A stretch of DNA of 10,350 bases from a virus. Taxonomy: Duplodnaviria; Heunggongvirae; Uroviricota; Caudoviricetes. Within the stretch, counting starts at the first letter, position 1, and every line of letters starts with the position of its first letter. Position numbers: made by a program. The DNA lies in the IMG/VR virus record IMGVR_UViG_2698536559_000019. One strand, 5' to 3'. This document shows positions 3,001 through 6,000 of the stretch, one piece after another.

Positions 3001-6000
3001 TTTATGAGTGGATGCGCCAGAAAATTAATGCAGCGCAGGATCTGAAATGGGCCAATGAAGCCAGGGCTAAGCAGGCTGAAAATCTGTCCGCTCTGGAGCA
3101 GGATATCACCAATCTGGAAAAAGCAGCGGCATTAAGCATTGCCAGAATGATTACATACCCACGTTAATAGCTAACCAACGAGGCTAATAATGGAATTTAA
3201 AGATTTACCAAAAGAAATCCAGACAATTGCTGCAACGACTCTCGGTGATAGTCTGGTGAAAATTGACCCGGCATACACCAAAAAAGAAACCATCGATAAT
3301 ATGGTTCGTAATGTGCGCAATGCTTTTTCTGGGCTATATGGTTCTGATAATCAAAAGCAGGAAAGCGATGTTAATAAACGGGTAATTTCTGTTTGCGTGA
3401 ATGGCCATGTTCTTTCATCAATCAAAACAGAAACGGCGACAGTCTTCGATTGCCTTTGCATTGTACAGAGCCTTGTTGATGCCCTGTTTCGTTCAGTGAA
3501 TTTAGAAAATGATGCAAATCTGCGAGGGCGCACAATAGCACATCCATATGCACATACTTTAGGCTCTGTGGATATCAAAGATCCCACAAATCTTTAATGA
3601 AATAGTTAACGCGAATTGTACTTGCTCTTTCAGTTGCTTTCAGAATACGCGTTGAAACTGCTGGCGGTAATTTGGTATTCCATTTATTAAAATCATGCCC
3701 GGGAAAGTACTCTTCGAAAATACTTTTAACTGCAGACTCGCCTATTGAAATGCTGCTTACCATGCGATTTTGATAAAGGCATTTAGCAATAAGAGTTGAT
3801 TTTAACATTCACCCTCCTGAGGGTTGGTAATTAAGGAGTTCTCCACGGGTGAAGTGGAGTGCGTGCGCCGGACACGGGTGAACATCCGGCACTGACAGTT
3901 TACTGAAAGGATATTTCTCTGAAAAGTCAGAGCATAACGCGAAAGCGCGCGGCGGTAAGTATGGCGGGGTTATTCCTTCCCCGTTGAGGACACCGGGTTG
4001 TCAGGTTGACCATACGCTTAAGTGACAACTCCGCTGCAACGCCCTCTGTTATCAATTTTCTGGTGACTTTTGGCGGTATCAGTTCTACTCCGTGACTGCT
4101 CTGCCGCCCTTTTTAAAGTGAATTTTGTGATGTGGTGAATGCGGCTAAGCGCACGCGGAACAGTTAAAACCAAAAACAGTGTTATGGGTGGATTCTCTGT
4201 ATCCGGCGTTAATTGTTAACTGGTTAACGTCACCTGGAGGCACCAGGCACCGCATCACAAAATTCATTGTTGAGGACGCGATAATGGAAACGTTATTACC
4301 AAACGTTAATACGTCTGAAGGTTGTTTTGAAATTGGTGTCACTATCAGTAACCCTGTATTTACTGAAGATGCCATTAACAAGAGAAAACACGAACGGGAG
4401 TTATTAAATAAAATATGCATTCTTTCAATGCTGGCCCGTTTACGTCCGACACAAAAAGGATGCTGGCAATGAATACAGCATTTGCACTTGTTCTGACAGT
4501 TTTTCTTGTTTCCGGAGAACCAGTTGATATTGCAGTCAGTGTTCACAGGACAATGCAGGAGTGTGTGACTGCAGCAACCGAACAGAAAATTCCCGGTAAC
4601 TGTTACCCGGTCGATAAAGTTATTCACCTGGATAATAACGAAATCCCGGCAGGTCTTTAAAACAGTTCCGTAATAAACATCCGATTTCATTCTTATATGC
4701 CAGCAATGGCAGGGATTTGTTCACCCTTAAATCTGTAATGAGGTAAAACAAAATGAGTAAAGTCTTTATTTGCGCCGCCATTCCGGACGAACAGGCAATA
4801 AAGGAAGAAGGTGCAGTCGCTGTAGCTACTGCCATTGAAGCCGGTGATGAACGTCGCGCCCGCGCAAAATTTCACTGGCAATTCCTGGAACATTATCCGG
4901 CTGCTCAGGACTGCGCTTATAAATTTCTTGTCTGCGAGGATAAACCCGGTATACCCCGCCCTGCCCTCGATTCCTGGGATGCTGAATATATGCAGGAAAA
5001 CCGCTGGGATGAGGCGTCTGCTTCCTTTGTCCCGGTTGAGACTGAATCAGATCCGATGAACGTCACTTTTGACAAGCTGGCCCCTGAAGTACAGAACGCT
5101 GTCATGGTTAAGTTCGACACATGTGAAAACATCACCGTTGATATGGTGATTAGTGCGCAGGAACTGTTGCAGGAAGACATGGCAACATTCGACGGACATA
5201 TCGTTGAAGCGTTGATGAAAATGCCAGAAGTTAACGCCATGTATCCGGAGCTTAAGCTGCATGCCATCAGGTGGGTTAAGCATAAATGTAAGCCTGGTGC
5301 CAAATGGCCCGAAATTCAGGCAGAGATGCGCATCTGGAAAAAACGTCGCGAAGGTGAACGCAAGGAAACCGGAAAATACACGTCTGTTGTTGATCTCGCC
5401 CGCGCCAGAGCCAATCAACAGTACACTGAAAATTCAACAAGAAAAATCAGCCCGGTCATTGCTGCCATTCATCGCGAATACAAGCAGACATGGAAAACAC
5501 TGGATGACGAACTGGCCTACGCTCTCTGGCCTGGTGATGTGGATGCCGGAAACATTGACGGCAGCATCCATCGCTGGGCAAAAAATGAAGTTATCGACAA
5601 CGACCGCGAAGACTGGAAGCGTATCTCGGCATCAATACGCAAACAGCCTGATGCCCTTCGCTACGACCGCCAGACTATTTTTGGCCTTGTCCGTGAACGT
5701 CCGATCGACATTCACAAAGACCCTGTGGCACTGAACAAATACATTACTGAATACCTGACTACAAAGGGCGTGTTTGAAGATGAAGGAACAAATCAGAGCG
5801 CAACTGATACTCTCTCATCGCCAGTACCAGAAACTGATGCAGTGGAAACGGCAATTCCGGACAACGAAAAAACCGAATGCAAAGTGGAAATCGAACCATC
5901 TGTAGAGCGTGAGGGGCCGTTCTACTTCCTCTTCACCGACAAGGATGGCGAAAAATACGGTCGCGCAAACAAACTTTCTGGTCTGAATAAGGCGCTGACT

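Follow-up and report, generated by a model that had tools for sequence, protein, structure and literature searches.

A probable dicB-ydfD pair in the dicBF-type early-left operon of an Escherichia coli lambdoid prophage

The dicB-ydfD locus has been published for the Qin prophage of Escherichia coli K-12, and it is an ordinary part of E. coli lambdoid prophages. The dicBF locus is widespread in prophages of this species, with several copies in O157:H7 (PMC5069750). In K-12, ydfABC, dicFB and ydfD are carried on one transcript, and this operon is repressed by DicA and induced by the antirepressor Rem (PMC10448788). The active inhibitor DicB, a protein of 62 amino acids, is made from an internal in-phase start, according to Cam et al. 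(1988) as cited in PMC8835842 (its reference 51). It was found that K-12 DicB binds MinC, and that the complex goes to the septal ring via ZipA and depolymerises FtsZ, which leads to filamentation (PMC6832061). Through the same interaction with MinC, DicB inhibits ManYZ and blocks infection by lambda-like phages whose DNA enters the cell through ManYZ (PMC6832061). The product of the second gene, YdfD, lyses cells within hours of its induction, and co-expression of DicB or SulA prevents this lysis (PMC8835842). Thus, lysis by YdfD needs ongoing division. Binding of YdfD to IspG, an enzyme of the MEP isoprenoid pathway, was seen in pull-down, SEC, ITC and FRET, and the cells are rescued by over-production of IspG or by HMBPP (PMC8835842). 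YdfD no longer kills when even one residue at its ends is changed (Lu et al., PMC8835842). The IspG mechanism has some loose ends in the same paper: IspG is bound by the hydrophobic N-domain, the cysteines are dispensable for binding, and the C-domain alone is reported to be toxic (PMC8835842). Other small division inhibitors of the early-left region are KilR of the Rac prophage and Kil of lambda, which block FtsZ-dependent division as well; Kil is the product of a single gene without a YdfD-like partner.

The window, that is, the whole stretch of 10,350 nucleotides that was analysed (IMG/VR record IMGVR_UViG_2698536559_000019), contains two small genes that very probably represent this known dicB-ydfD pair in a dicBF-type early-left operon of an E. 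coli lambdoid prophage, judging from sequence comparison (Table 1). An earlier note on this DNA had read two small ORFs at 4284-4660 with a stop/start overlap and a ribosome-binding site for each, and this reading is correct. Its length of about 62 amino acids for each product holds for the first protein, whereas the second has 63. The note presented the pair as unknown; the locus is in fact a published one. In the homology search that it proposed, both proteins match curated families over their full length. DicB of the window covers profile positions 1-62 of 62 of PF05358 (E 2.2e-37, 127 bits against a cut-off of 27) and scores 131.6 bits against the NCBIfam model NF049927, "cell division inhibition protein DicB" (cut-off 100). 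YdfD covers positions 1-57 of 57 of PF07358, the DUF1482 family (E 3.8e-25, 88 bits against a cut-off of 25), and positions 1-63 of 63 of phrog_1092 (E 9e-37); NCBIfam has no model for the DUF1482 family. A locus that is 100% identical is found in strain AMSHJX01, where RefSeq annotates dicB, a DUF1482 family protein and an exonuclease. For the YdfD allele type of the window, RefSeq gives only the name "DUF1482 family protein", whereas K-12-type alleles are called "lysis protein YdfD". Neither DicB nor YdfD has a solved relative in the PDB, as judged from profile and sequence searches, and PADLOC returned no defence-system match for either window protein, although DicB is known to exclude phages.

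Table 1. Features of the dicB-ydfD region in the window (+, strand shown; -, opposite strand)
Feature	Coordinates	Strand	Basis
DicF small RNA	4058..4109	+	Rfam RF00039, 71.5 bits (gathering score 48), E 1.4e-14, full model 1-52
Antisense 181-aa ORF, not a gene	4145..4690	-	Without family match; stops in relatives
In-frame upstream extension of the dicB ORF	4179..4283	+	97-aa ORF from GTG 4179; ORF list
Extent of the dicB-ydfD cassette	4269..4676	+	blastn of the window against locus L096: matches stop at 4268 and restart at 4677
dicB Shine-Dalgarno, GAGGA	4272..4276	+	7 nt 5' of ATG; sequence reading
dicB (62-aa cell-division inhibition protein DicB)	4284..4472	+	ATG 4284, TGA 4470-4472 (sequence reading); PF05358, NF049927, K-12 identity, RefSeq annotation of AMSHJX01
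ydfD Shine-Dalgarno, AAGGA	4456..4460	+	Inside the dicB 3' end, 8 nt 5' of ATG; sequence reading
ATGA stop/start overlap of dicB and ydfD	4469..4472	+	Sequence reading; conserved in relatives
ydfD homologue (63-aa DUF1482-family lysis protein)	4469..4660	+	ATG 4469, TAA 4658-4660 (sequence reading); PF07358, phrog_1092, K-12 identity
826-aa exonuclease, next operon gene	4753..7233	+	phrog_2082 full length; PF16473; partial NF007259

The closest described counterpart is the dicF-dicB-ydfD-exonuclease locus of K-12 Qin, to which positions 4000-4760 of the window are 95.9% identical and in which dicB, ydfD ("lysis protein YdfD") and a truncated exonuclease are annotated. In ungapped comparison with the K-12 proteins, identity is 89% for DicB and 92% for YdfD. 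In both prophages, dicB encodes 62 amino acids from an internal in-phase start, lies about 175 nt downstream of DicF and shares an ATGA overlap with ydfD. In the window, the start codon of dicB and its Shine-Dalgarno motif are placed inside a longer ORF of 97 amino acids, as is the internal start of K-12 DicB. The DNA of the upstream extension is nearly identical to that of K-12, and the Pfam DicB match comprises residues 36-97 of the long ORF. The two DicB proteins differ by seven substitutions, namely E2K, H36Q, L47V and those in the C-terminal tail (RPTQKGCWQ against RLMPKGCAQ), a part that is also variable among other family members. The two YdfD proteins have 63 amino acids, a hydrophobic N-terminus, two cysteines, N2 and L63 in common, together with the position of their genes between dicB and the exonuclease gene, and they differ by five substitutions (T3S, A6V, V33M, L54Q and N57I).

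The surroundings of the pair are also those of a dicBF-type operon. DicF is directly upstream of dicB, as in the dicBF operon of K-12, and differs from K-12 DicF at 2 of 52 bases; ydfC lies further upstream at 2949-3167. DicF regulates ftsZ and other mRNAs by an antisense mechanism, and the hairpin and T-run at its 3' end act as a terminator. A promoter and terminator scan of positions 3800-4800 missed this terminator, which Rfam does find. The window prophage differs from Qin in its immunity region, which is of the YdaS/YdaT type with a paaR2-paaA2-parE2-like module (a paaA2-parE2 toxin-antitoxin pair behind a regulator gene) instead of dicA/dicC. Neither dicA/dicC nor ydfA/ydfB was found in the window. 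The gene downstream of the pair had been called recE-like in the earlier note. This name is imprecise: the exonuclease has its middle region in common with exodeoxyribonuclease VIII (NF007259, 283 bits against a cut-off of 1269, middle region only), whereas its C-terminal part is an Rv2179c-like DEDDh-type 3'-5' exonuclease domain (PF16473, residues 642-814). In K-12 Qin, its counterpart (ydfE) is a pseudogene truncated by IS2; in the window, the gene is intact.

Several observations indicate that dicB and ydfD are inherited as one unit. In the phage collection, DicB was found in 20 records, all of them among the 28 records with a YdfD homologue, which is encoded directly downstream. The other 8 of these 28 records are Klebsiella, Salmonella and Citrobacter phages, in which a YdfD homologue occurs without DicB. 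The DUF1482 genes of these temperate phages (PF07358, E 4e-19 to 6e-18) resemble ydfD in being just upstream of an exonuclease VIII-type gene and in having a stop/start overlap with a small upstream ORF. They differ in the partner, which is an ORF of 37 or 66 amino acids unrelated to DicB and without family match, and DicF was not detected in these loci. The closest prophage arm overall is that of E. coli EC12 (98.7% identity over positions 1-8780), which is colinear with the window except at the dicB-ydfD cassette. There, the two genes and a few flanking bases are swapped for a kilR cassette, and the annotation of EC12 shows a DicB fragment and, after it, kil. As dicB and ydfD are replaced together in EC12, the two genes move as one cassette, and different division inhibitors, unrelated to each other, can occupy the slot between DicF and the exonuclease gene. 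No detectable similarity links the two kinds of cassette: BLASTP of both window proteins against EC12 KilR gave no alignment at E <= 100, and no match to a Kil family was found in Pfam, NCBIfam or PHROGs. The suggestion that the pair is Kil-like is therefore dropped. The co-expressed two-protein module that the earlier note had proposed agrees with the conserved overlap, with the cassette swap and with the transcript known from K-12 (PMC10448788), all of which point to co-inheritance and co-transcription.

By analogy with K-12, a working scheme for the locus can be proposed. The two genes would be transcribed together, with DicF upstream and the exonuclease gene downstream. DicB of the window is expected to bind MinC, to reach the septal ring through ZipA, to break down FtsZ rings and thus to block division. 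Through its interaction with MinC, it may also block ManYZ and so exclude lambda-like phages that inject through ManYZ. Over-produced YdfD, in turn, would bind IspG and lyse dividing cells, and a division block imposed by DicB or SulA would prevent the lysis; the terminal residues N2 and L63 are both kept in the window allele. A division inhibitor or exclusion factor had thus been rightly expected in this pair, but it was assigned to the hydrophobic protein, which is the lysis protein YdfD, and not to DicB, the first and non-hydrophobic protein, for which both activities are known (PMC6832061). The overlap, with the ydfD Shine-Dalgarno motif inside dicB, would keep both genes on one message. 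From this gene anatomy and its conservation, the overlap probably ties synthesis of YdfD to that of DicB, so that the lytic protein would be made only together with its neutraliser. RNA folding of the junction (4420-4500) gave z = 0.15, no better than shuffled sequences, and no structure hiding the ydfD ribosome-binding site was found there. Thus, RNA structure lends no support to an obligatory translational coupling.

Whether the two reading frames are real and still in use can be judged from relatives. From genomes, IMG/VR contigs and phage records, 95 related loci were gathered, and 88 of them have both genes, representing 28 unique sequence variants. The 4-nt overlap is kept in every one of these variants, as ATGA in 26 and as GTGA in two, which are of the PPompW type (L089 and phage 204576, L095) and whose YdfD proteins show about 50% and 44% identity. 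A GGA/GGAG motif is also found at the position of the ydfD Shine-Dalgarno sequence in 28/28. Against the copy of E. albertii, pN/pS is 0.24 for dicB and 0.23 for ydfD, and such values indicate that both frames are under purifying selection. Given the full-length matches to curated families, the conserved overlap and the low pN/pS, the two ORFs are far beyond chance. A rival reading takes an antisense ORF of 181 amino acids as the real gene and the small sense ORFs as incidental. No ORF of the interval is longer, and it has no internal stop in the window or in close relatives. However, K-12-type, E. ruysiae, E. albertii and PPompW-type relatives, in which the sense frames are open, carry 1-5 stop codons in it; it has no family match in Pfam, NCBIfam or PHROGs, and it is annotated in none of the records examined. 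Its variable sites are distributed 42/20/31 over the codon positions, with no third-position concentration. It is extremely unlikely to be the real gene, and this reading was rejected because of the stops in relatives. The earlier note had taken the antisense ORF for an artefact, and had named loss of the sense frames or conservation of the antisense frame in related prophages as what would speak against the pair; the sense frames are kept, and it is the antisense one that is broken. Another alternative is that the pair is a decaying remnant, whose ORFs, intact by descent, have lost their expression or function in this prophage. In its favour, the operon of K-12 is not expressed in laboratory conditions (PMC6832061, PMC10448788), the DicF terminator stands between the upstream genes and dicB, and the scan of positions 3800-4800 found no promoter-like site for the pair on the + strand. 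Nevertheless, decay is very unlikely in view of the low pN/pS of both genes and of the frames, which are open in all relatives examined except a Shigella flexneri copy (L008) with a disrupted ydfD. In addition, the prophage arm looks intact, unlike that of Qin, with a full-length exonuclease gene and intact excisionase-like (DUF4224) and integrase genes. The locus is also widely retained: of 5426 complete E. coli genomes, 4663 contain similar DNA, and the median copy number per genome is 2. A scan of one genome per species gave only 6 loci and thus little further diversity; all were from Escherichia or Shigella except one, whose contig had been binned as Veillonella but probably belongs to E. 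coli.

The identity of the pair as dicB-ydfD leaves room for a different view of how YdfD acts. YdfD of the window starts with MNTAFALVLTVFLVSG and has cysteines at positions 32 and 45, so the hydrophobic start and the two cysteines described in the earlier note are present. A length of about 63 amino acids, a hydrophobic N-terminal segment (about 22 residues by the family description) and two conserved cysteines are the marks of the YdfD family, and the window protein has them. Its hydrophobic or uncharged run consists of the 14 residues 3-16 and is followed by E17, P18 and D20; the 19-residue Kyte-Doolittle maximum is 1.87, in a span that includes E, P and D. No K or R precedes the run, and the Salmonella homologue has an even weaker one. 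As the run has only 14 residues and no basic N-terminus, the reading of this segment as a membrane anchor or signal peptide, made from the sequence, is not secure. Both cysteines are invariant in 44 aligned DUF1482 members and in distant phage homologues, and they are kept from Escherichia to homologues of Klebsiella, Salmonella and Citrobacter at 36-50% identity. Since the cysteines are invariant and yet reportedly not needed for binding of IspG, which maps to the hydrophobic N-domain, it is conceivable, with modest probability, that YdfD has another topology or target than the published one. In one such alternative, YdfD would not be a cytoplasmic inhibitor of IspG; its N-terminus would be an export signal or signal-anchor, and the C-terminal domain with the cysteine pair would have the envelope or the division machinery as its target, in the periplasm or at the membrane. 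Taken as a whole, this is unlikely, though several points favour it. The short run ending in V-S-G before E17 is more like the core of a signal peptide than a membrane span of 20 residues, and V-S-G|E fits the -3/-1 rule; however, many relatives have N at -3 (FLNTG-E), and Sec signals rarely have an N-terminal region devoid of basic residues, as is the case here. The mapping of IspG binding to a sticky hydrophobic N-domain, and the binding that persisted in YdfD without cysteines (PMC8835842), would agree with this alternative, as would the dependence of lysis on ongoing division. On the other hand, over-production of IspG and HMBPP were reported to rescue cells (PMC8835842), and the C-terminal domain was still toxic without the N-terminus (Masuda 2016, as cited in PMC8835842), which argues for action in the cytoplasm. 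An AlphaFold2 model of YdfD, built on an alignment of 44 sequences, is of too low quality to decide the matter or to be used for a fold search (mean pLDDT 62.5, pTM 0.35), with a low-confidence helix at residues 3-15. A broader proposal is that YdfD-type proteins are effectors that are exported or act at the membrane surface, each with a host-specific "brake" partner, and that IspG is not their true or not their sole target. It draws on the signal-like N-terminus throughout DUF1482, on the invariant cysteine pair, for which the IspG model has no use, and on the overlapping partner gene, which differs by host. This proposal is a long shot; if true, it would mean that temperate phages have a general two-gene module for arrest followed by lysis.

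Under the preferred reading, in which the pair is dicB-ydfD, the region can be labelled confidently as dicF, dicB, ydfD and then the exonuclease gene. The present analysis makes small additions to what is known of this locus. The stop/start overlap is still present in relatives with about 50% protein identity; the pair is exchanged with kilR as a single cassette at the same site; and among sequenced phages, DicB never occurs without YdfD, whereas YdfD-family genes do occur without DicB. The biological interest of the locus lies in its combination of a division inhibitor that also excludes phages, a lysis protein restrained by this inhibitor, and a regulatory small RNA.

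In the prophage of E. coli EC12 (locus L096), the closest prophage arm overall, kilR is found in place of the entire dicB-ydfD cassette (window 4269-4676 versus L096 6355-6641). The two sequences recombine at one boundary immediately 5' of the ribosome-binding site of dicB and at another 16 nt 3' of the ydfD stop codon, and a 28-codon remnant of the long dicB ORF, the in-frame form that starts upstream of DicB, is left beside kilR in EC12. The dicB-ydfD module was also found, at 86% protein identity to the window, on contig JAGZPX010000007.1 (L006), which was binned in a Veillonella parvula MAG. 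This is almost certainly an Escherichia prophage contig that has been mis-binned.

The window DicF sRNA differs from that of K-12 by 2 bases; this sRNA was absent from the earlier note on the small-gene pair. On the other side of the pair, the 826-aa protein (4753-7233, plus strand), termed recE-like in the earlier note, is chimeric: the central region is similar to exonuclease VIII, with a score well under the family cut-off, and the C-terminal domain (residues 642-814) is not the RecE nuclease domain but an Rv2179c-like DEDDh 3'-5' exonuclease (PF16473). A recT-like gene is not present directly 3' of this exonuclease gene, which is followed by a DUF4224 excisionase-like gene and then by the integrase gene.

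Features located in the window and in related phage loci
Feature	Sequence	Position	Strand	Remark
YdaT-like protein	window	540-965	-	
YdaS-like helix-turn-helix protein	window	962-1264	-	
PaaA2 "stability determinant", 63 aa	window	1754-1945	+	PF21217
ParE toxin, 92 aa	window	1947-2225	+	PF05016
68-aa protein with CxxC...CxxC motifs	window	2656-2862	-	"ECs_2282 family putative zinc-binding protein" in relatives' annotation
Second antisense-oriented small gene	window	3575-3808		phrog_10348
DicF sRNA	window	4058-4109	+	Rfam RF00039, 71.5 bits; immediately 5' of dicB-ydfD
EspF-repeat protein, TccP/EspFu type	window	9343-9955	+	PF04806, three repeats
Phage tail-fibre gene, C-terminus	window	10081-10350	-	PF06820
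Small ORF + DUF1482 pair	L090, L091	2301-2698		
Small ORF + DUF1482 pair	L092, L093	2391-2692		

At the position where Rac-type prophages have cro/cII-type genes, the window carries the YdaS-like and YdaT-like genes, which overlap by 4 nt (540-1264, minus strand). Between this immunity region and the dicBF-type genes is placed a three-gene module resembling paaR2-paaA2-parE2 (1299-2225, plus strand), whose regulator-like 144-aa ORF has no Pfam match. Transcription of the 68-aa CxxC...CxxC gene opposes the surrounding operon, and the phrog_10348 gene overlaps the end of a 135-aa ORF (3190-3597).

Similarity to the EC12 prophage stops at about 8780, shortly beyond the integrase gene, and the rest of the window (8780-10350) holds a region with an EspV fragment, then the gene for the EspF-repeat protein and the tail-fibre C-terminus. 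This suggests that a second prophage or effector island adjoins this one, as in strain Z1323CEC0014 (L097). The EspF-repeat gene contains a 141-bp tandem repeat (9598-9934, 2.4 copies, 97% match). Its ORF in the window stops abruptly after just 197 aa, against 391 aa for the counterpart in Z1323CEC0014, and so may be truncated or collapsed inside the repeats.

In Klebsiella, Salmonella and Citrobacter phages, DUF1482 genes, the family of ydfD, likewise share a stop/start overlap with an upstream small ORF (37 or 66 aa). These partners are unrelated to DicB and have no family assignment; they may fill the role of DicB in a host-specific manner.
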